A stretch of 63,323 nucleotides of DNA, the filler included, from Desulfonatronovibrionaceae bacterium (GTDB taxonomy: Bacteria > Desulfobacterota > Desulfovibrionia > Desulfovibrionales > Desulfonatronovibrionaceae), in assembly GCA_046539845.1 (NCBI GenBank). It is 3 parts of 2 records of this genome, joined end to end, with 100 filler letters (N's around TTAATTAATTAA, not from the genome) between each part and the next. Parts side by side here need not be neighbours in the genome. Positions count along the whole stretch, not along the records: positions 13,037 to 32,123 come from JBKHGE010000005.1; 2 more parts are not named here. The stretch is one strand, 5' to 3'. The notes below the pieces were generated by a model. The model ran no database searches. It saw only the letters and a list, made by a program, of their open reading frames with translations, and was not told the DNA's origin. The position numbers and the translations under genes were made by a program. Shown piece by piece: positions 12,937 to 32,704 of the stretch (position 1 is its first letter; every line of letters begins with the position of its first letter).

Positions 12937-13036
12937 NNNNNNNNNNNNNNNNNNNNNNNNNNNNNNNNNNNNNNNNNNNNTTAATTAATTAANNNNNNNN
13001 NNNNNNNNNNNNNNNNNNNNNNNNNNNNNNNNNNNN
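12937..13036. other. Artificial contig linker / assembly gap
   Basis: 44 N + TTAATTAATTAA (stops in six frames) + 44 N. Confidence 0.95.
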
Positions 13037-22314: not shown

Positions 22315-23958
22315 ATGCGCATAGGAATCCTGCAGCTCAATCCCAAAATCAACGATCTTGTCGGAAACGCGGACAAGATCGTCAGCCGGGTCAGGCGGGC
22401 CAGGGACCAGGGGGCAGAGCTGTGCATCACTCCGGAAATGGCTTTAATCGGCTATCCGCCCAAGGATTTCCTCTTTTACTCCTCGGTAATAGACAAATGC
22501 CTGGATACAGCCGTGGACTTGGCCCGGGAAATCTCGGGGGTGTGTCCGTTGATTTTGGGTATGCCCCTATATTCCGATGACCGCCGTTTTCTTTTTAATG
22601 CGGCGGCCCTGGTACATTCCGGAAAAATCGTAGCCAGTACTGCCAAAACCCTGCTACCCAATTACGACGTATTCGATGAATCCAGATACTTTGTTCCCCA
22701 TCCCCAGCCGCAGATATTTGCGATAAACGGCCGCAGACTCGGGATCACCGTGTGCGAGGATATCTGGAACGACAAAAATTTCTGGGAGTCGCCGCGCTAC
22801 GACTTAGACCCGGTGCATACCCTGGTTCGGTCCGGAGCGGAGATAATCATAAACATCTCCGCCTCTCCATTCAGCCTGGGCAAACAAAAAACCCGGGAGG
22901 CCATGCTCTCCAGCCAGGCCCACAGACACAGAGTGCCCATTGCTTACTGCAACCAGTGCGGCGGAAATGACGATCTCATATTCGACGGATTCAGCTGCGC
23001 CCTGGACCAATCCGGCCGGGTTTTTGCCCGGGCACCCGGTTTTGCCGAACATACCCTGATCGCGGACATGACCAAAAGATCGGATGCAGACCTCTTTCCC
23101 CTGTGCGTGAACAAAGAGGAGGAGGCCTGGGAGGCCATGGTCCTAGGATGTCGAGACTATGCGGACAAATGCGGATTCAAGCGGGTAGTCCTGGGACTCT
23201 CCGGGGGAATAGACTCTGCTCTGACCGCTGCCGTGGCCGCACAAGCCGTGGGGCCGGGGAATGTGCTCTGCGCAATGCTGCCCTCCCCATACACCAGCCG
23301 GACCAGCCAGGAAGACTCCCGCCGCCTGGCCGAAAACCTGGGCGTGGAGCTCATAAATCTATCCATCTCTGGAGCCATGCAGGAGTTCGCGGCCATTCTT
23401 ACCCCCGTGTTTTCCGGGCTCCCCAAGGGCGTAACCGAGGAAAACATCCAGGCCCGCATTCGGGGAAACCTGCTCATGGCCCTAGCCAACAAGCTGGGGG
23501 CCCTGCTTTTGACCACCGGCAACAAATCCGAACTTGCGGTCGGCTACTGCACCATTTACGGGGATATGGCCGGAGGACTGGGAGTACTATCCGATGTGCC
23601 CAAAACAATGGTCTACTCCCTCTCCCGATGGCTCAACCAAAAAAAGGGGCGGGAAATCATCCCGGAAAACATCCTGATCAAGGCGCCGAGCGCGGAACTC
23701 AAACCAGGACAAAAAGACCAGGATTCCCTGCCCCAGTATGAGACACTGGACCAAATCCTGTATTTCCTTTTGCAGAGATTCGAATCCGTCTCTGAGATAA
23801 CCGCGCGGGGCTTTTCTAAAAAAGAAGTCCAAAAAATAGCCGCTTTGGTCCACCGTTCGGAATTCAAGCGCAAGCAGGCCCCGCCGGGACTGAAAATCAC
23901 CGATCGTGCCTTTGGCACCGGCTGGAGAATGCCCATTGCCAGCTACCGGCTGACTTGA
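22315..23958 (+). CDS. nadE: Glutamine-dependent NAD+ synthetase
   Basis: Nitrilase domain (PE, K, VCEDIW) plus LGLSGGIDS, ENIQAR, GNKSE and PSAEL. Confidence 0.95.
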   Translation: MRIGILQLNPKINDLVGNADKIVSRVRRARDQGAELCITPEMALIGYPPKDFLFYSSVIDKCLDTAVDLAREISGVCPLILGMPLYSDDRRFLFNAAALVHSGKIVASTAKTLLPNYDVFDESRYFVPHPQPQIFAINGRRLGITVCEDIWNDKNFWESPRYDLDPVHTLVRSGAEIIINISASPFSLGKQKTREAMLSSQAHRHRVPIAYCNQCGGNDDLIFDGFSCALDQSGRVFARAPGFAEHTLIADMTKRSDADLFPLCVNKEEEAWEAMVLGCRDYADKCGFKRVVLGLSGGIDSALTAAVAAQAVGPGNVLCAMLPSPYTSRTSQEDSRRLAENLGVELINLSISGAMQEFAAILTPVFSGLPKGVTEENIQARIRGNLLMALANKLGALLLTTGNKSELAVGYCTIYGDMAGGLGVLSDVPKTMVYSLSRWLNQKKGREIIPENILIKAPSAELKPGQKDQDSLPQYETLDQILYFLLQRFESVSEITARGFSKKEVQKIAALVHRSEFKRKQAPPGLKITDRAFGTGWRMPIASYRLT

Positions 23959-24003
23959 ATTGGAAACCAGCCGGAACAGGGCCCGGCCTTGTGCAGTTAA
24001 CCC

Positions 24004-24033
24004 TTGACGTTAAATCCGGATTGTGAGTATAAT
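24004..24033 (+). promoter_or_regulatory. Sigma70 promoter
   Basis: TTGACG-N18-TATAAT; the expected start site falls at or next to the leader ATG (24041). Confidence 0.75.
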
Positions 24034-24040
24034 TTTTCAT

Positions 24041-24121
24041 ATGAAAAGTTTCAGCACTGCGGACTTTTTCCTGTTTTTTAATTTTTTTATTTTCCGAGGG
24101 GAAACTGGGTCCGTGGTGTAA
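24041..24121 (+). CDS. Phe-rich attenuator leader peptide MKSFSTADFFLFFNFFIFRGETGSVV
   Basis: 26 aa with 8 Phe codons (7 within 10 codons), followed by overlapping antiterminator/terminator stems. Confidence 0.8.
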   Translation: MKSFSTADFFLFFNFFIFRGETGSVV

Positions 24122-24146
24122 AGACAAAAACACCGCCAAGGTACAG

Positions 24147-24177
24147 GGCCACGGACCAAAAGTCCGTGGCCTTTTTT
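24147..24177 (+). terminator. Attenuator terminator hairpin
   Basis: GGCCACGGAC-caaaa-GTCCGTGGCC-TTTTTT, 29 nt upstream of the ligase start. Confidence 0.85.
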
Positions 24178-24206
24178 ATGCAATTTAAAAATCAAAGGAG
24201 GGCCTC

Positions 24207-25511
24207 ATGATCCTGAACGTGGAAAAGGAAACCCTGCCCCGGGACGAGCTCAAACAGCTGCAGACCCAAAGGCTCAAATATCTGGTGGACAAGGCTTACC
24301 ACAACGTCCCCTTTTACCGGGAAAAATTCAAGGAGCAGGATCTGCGGCCGGAGCATATAAACTCATTATCCGACCTCAAATATCTCCCGCTGACTGAAAA
24401 GCAGGATTTGCGCAACAACTATCCGTTCGGACTGTTCGCCGTTCCCCAAGAGAACGTGGTCCGGGTGCACGCCTCCTCCGGGACCACAGGCAAGGCCACT
24501 GTGGTCGGATACACTCAGAGGGACGTAAACAACTGGGCCCACCTCATGGCCCGCTCCCTGATGGCTTCCGGAGCCACCCGCAGGGACGTGGTCCACAACG
24601 CATACGGCTATGGCCTTTTTACCGGCGGGCTTGGGGTGCACTACGGCGCAGAGGCCCTGGGCGCAACCATCATGCCTGTTTCCGGCGGAGGAACCAAGCG
24701 CCAGGTGATGCTCATGCGCGATTTCGGTCCTACAGTGCTCTGCTGCACTCCTTCTTACAGCCTGCATCTGTTTGAATCCGCCCTGGCCGCGGGAATAAAT
24801 GTCTCCGATCTGAAACTCAAGATCGGGATTTTCGGCGCAGAACCCTGGACCGAAGAGATGCGTCGGGACATTGAGTCTAAGCTGAACATAACCGCCCTGG
24901 ACATCTACGGCCTTTCCGAAATCATGGGCCCGGGAGTGGGTATGGAATGCGCCGCCGCCCAAGACGGCCTGCACATCTGGGAGGACCACTTCCTGGCAGA
25001 GATCATCGATCCCGGCACCCGGGAAGTATTGCCCCCGGGCGAGACTGGAGAGCTGGTCATAACTACCCTGACCAAAGAGGCCCAGCCGCTCATCAGATAC
25101 CGGACTCGGGATATAACCCGCCTCAATCCTGTCCCCTGCAAATGCGGCCGGACACATTACAAGATCGATCGTCTCAAGGGCCGTAGCGACGATATGCTCA
25201 TTATTCGAGGAGTAAACGTCTTTCCCTCCCAGATCGAAAGCGTCCTTCTGGAAACAGAAGGGCTCTCCCCACACTACGTACTGTATGTGGATCGGGAAGG
25301 TTCCATGGATACCCTGGAAATACGGGTCGAGGTTGACGAAAACATCTTTTCCGACGAAATTAAACACCTGCAAAGATTGGAGCACAAAATCTCTTCGCAT
25401 ATAAAAGAATTTTTGGGTGTAACCGCAAAGGTCAGTCTGGTGGAGCCCCGGAGCATATCCCGGTCCGAAGGCAAGGCCCAGAGGATCGTTGACCTACGCA
25501 AAAAGGACTAG
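24207..25511 (+). CDS. paaK: Phenylacetate-CoA ligase
   Basis: [33 protein letters not shown] and GRSDDM motifs. Confidence 0.9.
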
Positions 25512-25520
25512 GAGGAAAGA

Positions 25521-25952
25521 ATGAAAGTCGAACAAATATCCATATTTTTGGAAAACAGAGCGGGCAGGCTGGAAGAAGTGACCAGGACTTTGACCGAGGC
25601 CGGAGTGAATATCCGGGCCCTCTCTCTAGCCGACACCTCGGACTTTGGGATCTTGCGCCTGATCGTGACCGATTGTGAAAAGGCCAAAAAGGTACTTAAA
25701 GAAAACGGCTTCACAGTGGGCAGGACCAACGTGGTTGCAGCCGAGGTCGAGGACAGGCCCGGAGGACTGCACAAAATCCTCTCCCTTTTGAGTTCCAGGG
25801 GGATAAACGTGGAGTATATGTACGCCTTTGTCCAGCAAAGCGGCAAAAATGCAGTGCTCATATTCAGATTCGACCGCACCGATCAGGCCATAGAAGCTCT
25901 GCAGGAAAAAGGGGTGCGCATAATCCCCGGAGACGAGCTATACAACATCTAA
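25521..25952 (+). CDS. Tandem ACT domain (amino-acid-binding) protein
   Basis: [13 protein letters not shown] and [16 protein letters not shown]. Confidence 0.9.
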
Positions 25953-26097: not shown

Positions 26098-27288
26098 ATG
26101 CCCAATCATTGCCAAAAATTCTTTCTTGCCTTTTTTATCCTCCTCTTTGGCTTGCTCCCGGCCTGTTCCGGTGAACAGGACCGGGAAAAAGAAACCGCGG
26201 ACACCAGCCGGGAAAGCGGACCGCAAAAAGAGCCGTATAAAATAGGCGCCGTCCTGCGACTGTCCAAAGGGGCCTCGGACGGGGTACCAGCCCGGGTGGG
26301 CACAGAACTGGCCGTGGATATGATCAATTCAGCCGGGGGGATAAACGGACGCGAGCTGAAAATCGTGTACTATGACAGCAAGGATGACGCCACTACTGCG
26401 GTTAATGCGGTCCAGAAGCTCATTTCCGTGGACGAGGTCCAGGCCGTGATCGGACCAATGATGAGCGGCAACGTCCTAGCCGCTGCTCCACTTTGTCAGC
26501 GTTCAGAGGTGGTCATGATCACCCCCACGGGGACCTCTCCCAAAATCACCGGGGCCGGAGACTATATCTTCCGGGTATGCAGTCGGATAGACCTGCAGGC
26601 CAAGGCCCTGGTTAAAAAGGCTCTAGAAATGAGCGGGGATGAGCGACCAGAAGTGGCCATAATCTACAGCAACGAACCCTATGGCAAGGGATGCAGGAAA
26701 TTGTTCGTCAAGTACCTGGAACAGGAAGGCATCTCCCCGCAAGCGGTGGAATCCTTCCAGCGCGGGGATAAGGATTTCCAAGCCCAGCTGACCAAGATCA
26801 AATCCCTGGACCCGGATATCTTATTCATCCCGGGCTATCTGCAGGAAACCGCCCCTCTTGTCTCCCAGGCCAGACAAATGGGTATAGATGCCCTGAGCGT
26901 CGGGGTCTTCGGAGACATGGCCCCCCTTTATGTGGAGCTGGCAGGCAAGGCGGCCGAAGACCATCTGATAGCCGGGGAATACGACAAAGACTATGAAACA
27001 CAGATAAACTCTGAATTCAAATCAGCCTATGAACAAAAGCTCCGGGACAATCCCAATCTCCCGGACAATATTATGTTTGCCTCCCTGGCTTTTGATTCCG
27101 TACGCATGCTGGCCGAGGCTTTCCAAGAAGGGGCCCAAACCGGACCACAAATAAAGGGCTATCTGGACGAGCTGGAAAATTTCGACGGAGTAACCGGAAC
27201 GCTCTCTTTTGACTCCAACGGAGATATAGAAAAAGGTGGTGTATACTTGTTCCAGGTAAAAGAGGAAAAATACGAAAAGATAAATTAA
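26098..27288 (+). CDS. LivJ-type ABC substrate-binding lipoprotein
   Basis: Lipobox LPAC, INSAGGINGRELK and FDGVTGTLSFD. Confidence 0.9.
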   Translation: MPNHCQKFFLAFFILLFGLLPACSGEQDREKETADTSRESGPQKEPYKIGAVLRLSKGASDGVPARVGTELAVDMINSAGGINGRELKIVYYDSKDDATTAVNAVQKLISVDEVQAVIGPMMSGNVLAAAPLCQRSEVVMITPTGTSPKITGAGDYIFRVCSRIDLQAKALVKKALEMSGDERPEVAIIYSNEPYGKGCRKLFVKYLEQEGISPQAVESFQRGDKDFQAQLTKIKSLDPDILFIPGYLQETAPLVSQARQMGIDALSVGVFGDMAPLYVELAGKAAEDHLIAGEYDKDYETQINSEFKSAYEQKLRDNPNLPDNIMFASLAFDSVRMLAEAFQEGAQTGPQIKGYLDELENFDGVTGTLSFDSNGDIEKGGVYLFQVKEEKYEKIN

Positions 27289-27312
27289 GTTCAGCCCCAC
27301 CGGATAAAGACC

Positions 27313-27361
27313 AGGCCGTCCGCTCCCGGACTTTACTCCCGGCGGGCGGCCTTTAACTTTT
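27313..27361 (+). terminator. Hairpin downstream of SBP gene
   Basis: AGGCCGTCCGC...GCGGGCGGCCT followed by TTAACTTTTT. Confidence 0.55.
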
Positions 27362-27688
27362 TCCGGCTGGAGGCAATCCCTAGCCAGAAACCCCGCCTCA
27401 CCTACCTTGAACTGCTAACTCACAAGATAAAGCAGGACTTCGCCTTTGCCACCGCCAAGCAAAATTTAAACCTAGACGTTTGCGATCACCGGGACCCGGC
27501 AATCGCTCTTTCCCTAAGTTGCCAGGAAACTGGAAACACCGCGGAAGAATCCGTCGCTTACCTATAAAGATTTTGCCCTATTTCTAAAGACGGGTCTATT
27601 TTTTATTGCATCCCAAAAAAGAGTGCTATACTTACCCGGGTGGATTGAGCCCCAAAAATACCAACCCATTGGAGGCACCCGGGAATTG

Positions 27689-28552
27689 ATGCTTACACAA
27701 CAACTGGTAAACGGCCTTGTCTCCGGATCCGCTTATGCCCTCGTGGCCCTGGGATACGCCCTGATTTACGGCGTACTCGGGCTTATCAATCTGGCCCAGG
27801 GCGAACTGTATATGATCGGCGCCTTTGGTCTCTGGGCGGCCGTCAGCTACCTGGGACTGGGCCTTCCGGGGGCTGTTCTGGCCGGCTTGGCTCTGGCCGG
27901 AGCAGCCGGACTGCTCATGGAACGGCTGGTCTTCCGCCCTCTACGGGGCAGGCATCCCCTAATCCCCATGCTGGGTGCGGTCGGCCTGTCCATTGTCCTG
28001 CAATCCGCTGCTCTGCTTGTTTTCGGACCGAATACACGGTCGTTCCCGCTGGCTATGGAATCCCGTGTCTGGGACCTGGGGCTGTTTCGGATAACCAGTC
28101 TGCAGATCATGCTCATGGCCTCAGCGTTGATCCTTATGCTCTTTTTACTGTGGTTTGTTAAGCATTCCCGGTCCGGAAAGGCCTTGGAAGCCGTATCCAT
28201 GGACCGGGAGGCGGCCCGAATGGTGGGCATAAACACCAATACCAGCGTGGCCAACGCCTTTTTCATCGGGGCTGTTTTGAGCGGGGCCGGGGGTATGATG
28301 ATGGCTGCATACTACAACGCCACCTTCCCGTACATGGGTATATTGCCCGGCCTCAAAGGATTTTGCGCCGCTGTTCTAGGCGGAGCCGGATCCATAACTG
28401 GAGCCATAATCGGCGGGCTCCTACTGGGCGTGGCCGAAAGCTTGGGCGCAGCCTATTTTTCCTCCGGATTCAAAGACGGATTCGCTTTCGCCCTTTTAAT
28501 TCTCATCCTCTTGTTTAAACCCACCGGCCTTTTGGGGCGCAAAAGGCCCTGA
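27689..28552 (+). CDS. LivH-type ABC permease
   Basis: QQLVNGL, INLAQGELYMIGA and AVLGGAGS motifs. Confidence 0.9.
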   Translation: MLTQQLVNGLVSGSAYALVALGYALIYGVLGLINLAQGELYMIGAFGLWAAVSYLGLGLPGAVLAGLALAGAAGLLMERLVFRPLRGRHPLIPMLGAVGLSIVLQSAALLVFGPNTRSFPLAMESRVWDLGLFRITSLQIMLMASALILMLFLLWFVKHSRSGKALEAVSMDREAARMVGINTNTSVANAFFIGAVLSGAGGMMMAAYYNATFPYMGILPGLKGFCAAVLGGAGSITGAIIGGLLLGVAESLGAAYFSSGFKDGFAFALLILILLFKPTGLLGRKRP

Positions 28553-31837: not shown

Positions 31838-32123
31838 ACCACTCTCCGGGTTTCTACGGGGATGATTGCGGCCTAGCAAGGCCGGCTGGAGCAATGACCG
31901 ACAAAAGCCAACTCATGCCGGCCCGAATTTTTCGAGCTGCCGGACACTATCACTTTAGATATTAACCTAGAAATGCAAGGAAATAAAGACTAACATAACC
32001 TCCGCTCTGAACGGAGGATTACTCGATATCAGCTGCTTTTCCAGTATTCGGGAGTATCCCGGAGCAAGGTTCTCCTCTATAATTATTTTGATCTATCAAG
32101 GCTTGTTTAAAGCGGATTTTATC

Positions 32124-32223
32124 NNNNNNNNNNNNNNNNNNNNNNNNNNNNNNNNNNNNNNNNNNNNTTAATTAATTAANNNNNNNNNNNNNNNNNNNNN
32201 NNNNNNNNNNNNNNNNNNNNNNN
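32124..32223. other. Artificial contig linker / assembly gap
   Basis: 44 N + TTAATTAATTAA + 44 N. Confidence 0.95.
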
Positions 32224-32704
32224 ATGTTTAAAATGCAGTATGACTGCAAAGTTGATGTAACAATTTCACGGATCTAGGTATATATAAAAAATACATAAAT
32301 ATTAATGCATCAAAGAGAAAGATGCAAAAAAATGTCAAATCATGCATTAAAAAATGCATCGTATTGCTGACTTGACAACACTTCCTTTTTATGGAATACA
32401 ATCTTCTATAGTTTGAAAGGCCTGAGACAGATAAAAACAAAGGCAATAATTTTTTGTGCTATCCTCAAAAAATTATTGAACAAATATAATTTATCCATCA
32501 CCAGTAATTAGTCTGGTCGTAGAAGCAGCATGATCCCTTATATCCTCATAGACCTAACAGTTGCCGAACTCTGAAGCAACTCCCATGTCATTATTCGACC
32601 GGGTAACAGCCATAGTGATTCCTTTACTGAAAAAAGTGGAAAATCTCATGGCCACAGCCGCGAGACGTAACTTAGATAATCTTAACTCAACTTAAGGAGG
32701 GAAC

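Follow-up and report, generated by a model that had tools for sequence, protein, structure and literature searches.

A predicted Phe-responsive leader-peptide attenuator upstream of a PaaK-like CoA ligase gene in a Desulfonatronovibrionaceae genome

A Phe-rich open reading frame, predicted to be translated from a leaderless mRNA, precedes the gene of a PaaK-like CoA ligase in the genome of a Desulfonatronovibrionaceae bacterium (GCA_046539845.1). Taken as a whole, this leader is on balance probably a ribosome-stalling attenuator that turns on the ligase and its ACT-domain partner when charged tRNA-Phe is scarce, with the salvage of phenylacetate to Phe as the likely function. We regard it as very likely that the element is an attenuator sensing aromatic amino acids; once that is granted, a role in salvage is likely as well.

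In the proposed mechanism, transcription would begin at or just before the ATG of the leader, and the ribosome would load without a Shine-Dalgarno sequence. With Phe plentiful, the ribosome would reach the stop codon (24119-24121) and cover segment 2, the 3:4 helix would form and the polymerase would stop at 24172-24177; an untranslated leader would fold into 1:2 plus 3:4, with the same outcome. With Phe scarce, the ribosome would stall on the last Phe codon (24092-24094) or earlier, leaving segment 2 just outside its footprint. Segment 2 could then capture segment 3 before segment 4 is made, a kinetic effect that would give read-through. In the least certain step, the ligase would form phenylacetyl-CoA, IorAB, encoded elsewhere, would reductively carboxylate it to phenylpyruvate, and an aminotransferase would yield Phe.

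The ligase is near-universal in the order and usually carries the label of a phenylacetate-degradation gene; a switch responding to Phe starvation would be a direct and testable argument otherwise. If the salvage role is true, the ligase would scavenge fermentation-derived aryl acids to supply aromatic amino acids and would thereby connect members of anoxic communities by cross-feeding. As a mechanism, the switch is textbook knowledge; the RNA family is uncatalogued, is absent from Rfam 15, and represents termination-type attenuation that would use leaderless initiation.

Anatomy of the leader

The window, that is the whole stretch of DNA analysed (63,323 nucleotides), joins contigs across two runs of N (12937-13036 and 32124-32223), with contig C5 up to position 32123 and contig C25 from position 32224. 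The features of the leader and of the genes behind it are collected in Table 1. The promoter and the Phe-rich reading frame named in the original prediction were both recovered at their positions. The eight Phe codons of the frame comprise three TTC and five TTT, seven of them falling within the regulatory block, and the last is separated from segment 2 by 13 nt. Since the ATG stands 7 nt 3' of the -10 box and no Shine-Dalgarno sequence is present in the 15 nt before it, we infer a leaderless mRNA, with a predicted transcription start at or just 5' of the ATG. An in-frame GTG at 24023 was rejected as the start codon, as it lies inside the promoter.

The pairings that had been claimed for the leader also hold. 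The core of segment 1 (24056-24064) pairs with 24109-24117 through 9 bp, including two G-U pairs, and on folding this 1:2 helix extends beyond the core, joining 24054-24072 with about 24098-24119 (-26.7 kcal/mol). Positions 24149-24157 are the exact reverse complement of 24108-24116, and the resulting 2:3 helix has a free energy of -20.6 kcal/mol. The terminator ahead of the T6 tract consists of 10 Watson-Crick pairs (24147-24156 with 24162-24171) around a 5-nt loop, is extendable to 12, and has a free energy of -22.7 kcal/mol. Folded on its own, the leader adopts 1:2 plus 3:4 at minimum energy. Upstream of the leader lies nadE (22315-23958), and no intrinsic terminator was found between its end and the promoter (23958-24004). 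Transcripts reading through from nadE would arrive at a leader that is not being translated and end at its terminator.

Table 1. Features of the leader and its downstream genes (window positions), and related leaders on other contigs of the same genome
Feature	Position	Strand	Remarks
Sigma70-type promoter	24004..24033	+	-35 TTGACG 24004-24009, 18 nt, -10 TATAAT 24028-24033; 11/12 consensus
Leader ORF	24041..24121	+	26 codons, 8 Phe; no Shine-Dalgarno, predicted leaderless
Segment 1	24054..24072	+	core 24056-24064; 1:2 helix with segment 2 region, by folding
Regulatory codon block	24065..24094	+	7 Phe per 10 codons
Segment 2 (antiterminator 5' arm)	24108..24117	+	overlaps final ORF codons
Segment 3	24147..24157	+	common to antiterminator (2:3) and terminator (3:4)
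Segment 4 and U6 tract	24162..24177	+	segment 4 24162-24171, T6 24172-24177; intrinsic terminator
Shine-Dalgarno of ligase gene	24195..24201	+	3' of terminator hairpin, from sequence
PaaK-like aryl-acetate-CoA ligase, 434 aa, first regulated gene	24207..25511	+	TIGR02155 627.4 bits
ACT-domain protein, 143 aa, second gene of unit	25521..25952	+	PDB 2f06, E 3.6e-33
LivK-like ABC binding protein	26098..27288	+	possibly co-transcribed (uncertain)
aro leader, before aroA'	L119:300-560 (G000:C26, this genome)		predicted leaderless Phe/Tyr/Trp ORF + terminator
Trp-run leader + terminator before trpB	L121, G000:C9:28700 (- strand)		
Trp-run leader + terminator before TRAP transporter operon	L122, G000:C20:31365 (- strand)		

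Conservation and covariation

With the thresholds applied, ligase orthologues turned up in 183 of 201 genomes from the order and in 73 of 201 from the phylum. Phe-rich frames upstream of the ligase-ACT pair of relatives, for which the original prediction proposed a search, do occur: upstream DNA was read for 110 orthologue loci, and a leader was recognized by eye at 14 of the 70 loci within the order and at 4 of the 40 outside it. A loose scan rule flagged 15 of the 110 loci, as compared with 4 of 110 when applied to the reverse strand. Two of the flagged loci were false positives and were rejected as leaders, one (L006) as antisense coding sequence and the other (L081, genome G302) as a terminator without leader ORF or segment 2; in L081 the same terminator sequence stands right behind a promoter-like site, possibly as a relic. 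The same-genus locus L003 coincides with an N gap. Most orthologues have a short untranslated region without a leader, and leader control of the ligase is, judged from sequence, patchy across the order.

Among the 14 aligned leaders of the order, TTGAC is invariant and is followed in all 14 by an in-frame ATG at a distance of 35-39 nt (the second ATG for L059, L060 and L074). Covariation was counted for the 2:3 and 3:4 helices, 1:2 having been folded in the window only. In these aligned rows, which are kin and so not independent (four come from one genus), 96.8% of the cells of the terminator are paired, with 15 cells changed on both sides, and 91.3% of the cells of the antiterminator, with 12 changed on both sides. 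Slid controls for both helices gave 28-41% paired. In one genus the central pairs have been exchanged in all three segments.

Of 151 genomes from the order, 81 were matched by a covariance model (R1) built on the 14 aligned leaders. In 34 of the 151 the match lay directly upstream of the ligase; 12 of these 34 are training genomes, and 23 belong to genus g19. The g19 leaders hold merely 1-4 Phe codons each (19 loci), and their ATG lies 35-36 nt after TTGAC in 19 of 19. Some orthologous leaders also contain Tyr or Trp codons. When run on 80 named homologue loci, R1 yielded two matches, both within this order; the model therefore does not reach other phyla. Three leaders from outside the order (L084, L088, L082) have an extra hairpin pair ahead of the final terminator, giving a six-segment layout. 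A Firmicutes record (L275) shows a possible Phe/Tyr leader with terminator ahead of a ligase-ACT pair, flagged solely by the loose rule.

The ligase, its ACT partner and the proposed salvage role

The ligase is of the same enzyme family as the catabolic PaaK of the aerobic paa pathway (2y27, 2y4o; E 1e-145), and its matches to phenylacetate-CoA ligases in the PDB (2y27, 2y4o, 4r1l) range from E 1e-145 to 8e-124. Judged by this similarity, it may activate phenylacetate to the CoA ester. It differs from the catabolic PaaK in that it falls below the cut-off of the PaaK equivalog TIGR02155 (627.4 vs 646.3 bits), has an ACT partner and resides in a genome without paaA. The closest named homologues (74-77%) come from Desulfomicrobium, Desulfohalobiaceae, Desulfothermus and Desulfovibrionaceae, which points to the order Desulfovibrionales; a search of plasmids gave homologues under 60% only, the plasmid-borne PaaK proteins being about 55% identical. 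The ACT gene adjoins the ligase gene in 30 of 30 loci, and in five of the 30, all from genera g1 and g5, a LivK orthologue (at least 67%) follows the pair. In the window, livK and livH-like genes (26098-28552) come after ligase-ACT, without adjacent livM, livG or livF.

Neither paaA (PF05138) nor the ring-degradation genes oah (TIGR03200), dch (TIGR03189) and bcrB (TIGR02260) were found in the genome, which is 98.9% complete. The genome does encode IorA, with a score over the cut-off, and iorB lies beside it, the two being unlinked to the ligase. Speaking against the salvage reading, pheA and tyrA for de novo synthesis are also present. By sequence and gene context, the ligase is a member of an ACT- and Ior-linked subfamily of anaerobes and not part of a catabolic cluster. 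A PaaK-like ligase presumably also has a role in the aryl-acid route of Methanococcus maripaludis. Induction by Phe starvation had originally been called unexpected for a gene usually annotated as catabolic. The induction fits the predicted geometry, and the puzzle itself falls away: because the ligase would belong to the ACT- and Ior-linked subfamily and ring-degradation genes were not found, induction by Phe shortage fits biosynthetic salvage.

The attenuator could be real and sense Phe (or Phe/Tyr) while the ligase-ACT pair serves another aryl acid, or another step in the supply of aromatic amino acids, instead of Ior-dependent phenylacetate salvage. This we consider unlikely, with evidence on both sides. 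Genus g19 retains both ligase and leader, yet among its four tested leader-bearing genomes IorA was over the cut-off in none, with weaker matches in two and no match in the other two, and the iorAB genes of the present genome are unlinked and lack an attenuator, no leader having been seen before this genome's own iorAB, symporter or aminotransferase. Directly upstream of the ligase orthologue, iorB occurs at 0 of 70 loci inside the order but at 12 of 40 outside it. It also neighbours the ligase at 29 of the 80 named homologue loci, with 27 of 47 ACT-linked loci vs 2 of 33 without ACT. The sub-threshold PaaK score and the Tyr and Trp codons of some leaders would suit a different substrate; against this, one leader fronts a whole iorAB-ligase-ACT operon, and 12 of the 17 leader-bearing genomes tested have IorA over the cut-off (44 genomes searched). 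We keep phenylacetate salvage as the preferred role of the ligase.

Aromatic-codon leaders at other loci

On another contig of the same genome, aroA'-aroB'-pheA-aroA-tyrA-trpE is preceded by a leader that shares this layout and contains 5 Phe, 3 Tyr and 1 Trp codons. Among the aroA' loci of the order that were examined (30 fetched from 37 matching genomes, plus this genome), 31 of 31 had this aro leader, once without Phe; it is more conserved than the leader of the ligase. The genome further contains the two Trp-run leaders of Table 1, and a similar Trp leader precedes dctP in genome G062 (L196). An aromatic ORF at G000:C1:67626 of this genome was dropped as a leader, having no terminator.

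In other genomes, aromatic-codon leaders stand before genes of the presumed salvage route. Genome G303 (L230) has a Tyr/Phe leader before iorA-iorB-ligase-ACT, with ligase and ACT 64% and 68% identical, and genome G237 (L231) a Trp leader before iorA-iorB, transporter genes and a ligase paralogue; their gene content and codons suggest substrate-specific Ior modules. Phe/Tyr leaders precede PRK06836 aminotransferases (L205, L208, L213, L222), and Phe-rich leaders precede SSS symporters of 532-536 aa in several genera (L183, L185-L188, L191-L193). The leader-bearing symporter is a candidate importer of Phe or phenylacetate; its homologue in this genome (C6:48450, 69%) has no leader. Phe/Tyr leaders were also found before DAHP synthases, shikimate kinases and a LivK-like protein. 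The NCBIfam check covered 12 products downstream of these model matches.

These observations lead to a tentative generalization, whose chance we put somewhat short of even. Throughout the Desulfobacterota, mostly leaderless aromatic-codon attenuators may wire the de novo aro, pheA and trp operons together with every step of aryl-acid salvage, namely the sodium symporter, the aryl-CoA ligase with ACT, IorAB and the aminotransferase. The leader codon (Phe, Tyr or Trp) would then tell which substrate the ligase or Ior paralogue behind it uses (phenylacetate, 4-hydroxyphenylacetate or indoleacetate, respectively), and a near-universal 'catabolic' gene of sulfate reducers would become biosynthetic.

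Ribosome position, chance controls and other modes of switching

The nascent RNA was folded as far as the terminator loop, and all nucleotides up to 12 nt past the A-site, including everything 5' of the ribosome, were kept unpaired. In this model of the window leader, the predicted capture of segment 3 was 0.78 whichever Phe codon the ribosome occupied, 0.2-0.35 once it stood two or more codons past the last Phe codon and 0.23 without a ribosome. A drop in capture 1-5 codons past the last Phe codon was seen in 13 of 17 modelled leaders, and in the other 4 the switch does not track the last Phe codon; L079, which has no terminator by the rule used, is outside these 17. With segment 4 included, the terminator of the window reached 0.9-1.0 at equilibrium at any ribosome position, and a clear equilibrium flip was obtained only for L019, L060 and L082. 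As the terminator dominates at equilibrium, antitermination in the window has to be kinetic. In the model, the antiterminator prevails on the nascent chain but not at equilibrium in the window. The pheL/trpL-type reading of the original prediction is supported by conservation, by covariation in both mutually exclusive helices and by the ribosome-mask folding.

It seems quite improbable that the terminator is switched by a protein, by RNA polymerase acting on the U-rich tract or by nucleotide levels, with the ORF as an untranslated by-product of a T-rich sequence. The lack of a Shine-Dalgarno sequence and the failure of equilibrium folding to switch in the window would agree with such a scheme, but the fixed distance from TTGAC to ATG (14 of 14 aligned leaders, 19 of 19 in g19) argues for translation. 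T-rich tracts yield Phe codons in all frames: over 18 leaders, the three frames hold 105, 59 and 67 Phe codons, a bias that is partly circular as 14 of the 18 were picked for Phe/Tyr richness. The TTC codons nevertheless divide 30/11/7 over the frames, and codon identity tracks the pathway, with Trp codons before trpB and trpE and mixed codons before the aro genes. Because T runs do not survive a mononucleotide shuffle, that control (105 Phe codons vs a mean of 38.8) was given no weight. In Phe content, the window ORF, with eight codons, tops 155 short ORFs that start 34-40 nt after TTGAC, the next having six.

Even less probable is that the hairpin is a constitutive terminator only, catching nadE read-through or acting as a leaky limiter of the ligase, and that the complement lying upstream is a small, functionless duplication. 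The absence of a terminator-like site between nadE and the promoter and the occurrence of a terminator without leader at L081 would be in keeping with this. On the other hand, a strong promoter is aimed into a terminator 110 nt downstream, and segments 2 and 3 show covariation across families. An exact upstream complement of at least 9 nt to the 5' arm of the terminator (within at most 90 nt) was moreover found at 2 of 208 terminator-like sites in the whole genome, the window leader being the only one of the 208 with such a complement plus a short ORF.

A catabolic ligase whose leader tunes the degradation of Phe-derived phenylacetate is barely credible: the closest solved structures are phenylacetate-CoA ligases, and other sulfate reducers degrade phenylacetate by CoA ligases and Ior (PMC5109826, in the portion of text available), but the modelled geometry predicts read-through when Phe is scarce, which is the wrong sign, and the search of the genome turned up no paaA, oah, dch or bcrB.

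Relation to known attenuators and pathways

At the gathering score, Rfam gave no match in the window, nor at 13 related loci including the aro leader. The T-box riboswitch appeared neither at the gathering score nor among 16 weak Rfam matches. The best sub-threshold match of the region was Phe_leader RF01859 (28.8 bits vs a gathering score of 55, E 0.005), a family located upstream of pheA or pheST. Attenuator surveys by the Lyubetsky group reportedly cover delta-proteobacteria and could list some such leaders, above all the aro one.

The leader resembles that of pheL-pheA of Gammaproteobacteria, as described in the available part of PMC3082878, in its short ORF with a Phe run, its 1:2, 2:3 and 3:4 helices and its U-tract terminator, and in the read-through predicted under Phe limitation. 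It differs in its target, here CoA ligase plus ACT, pheA being located on another contig behind its own leader, and in having no Shine-Dalgarno sequence before the ORF, which E. coli pheL does have (same source). In that part of PMC3082878 one sulfate reducer is mentioned, for pheA only, and 'phenylacet' does not occur in the accessible text of this or three further papers on attenuators and RNA motifs (PMC2965389, PMC4833913, PMC2864571). The term is likewise absent from what is available of the text of a Desulfovibrio vulgaris fitness study (PMC10102598). In the freely available literature searched, no leader before a phenylacetate-CoA ligase was found, and no leader-peptide control of the aryl-acid/Ior route.

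The metabolic route has a counterpart in Methanococcus maripaludis, which, according to the portion of PMC3462420 at hand, converts aryl acids to aromatic amino acids through Ior; by the same scheme, Ior acting on a CoA-activated aryl acid, followed by transamination, would yield Phe, Tyr or Trp. The route was shown in that archaeon, whereas in the present order it is proposed.

The poly-Cys leaderless attenuators of mycobacteria (bioRxiv 10.1101/834739, the part available) likewise have a run of a single codon, in an ORF that begins where the mRNA begins, a position that is predicted here, and they too place many unlinked loci under one signal, for which the term 'ribulon' is used there. They respond to Cys and act by sequestering the ribosome-binding site, in contrast to the aromatic codons and intrinsic terminator found here. 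The ligase gene's ribosome-binding site lies beyond the terminator, and the output of the leader is the U-tract terminator, not sequestration.
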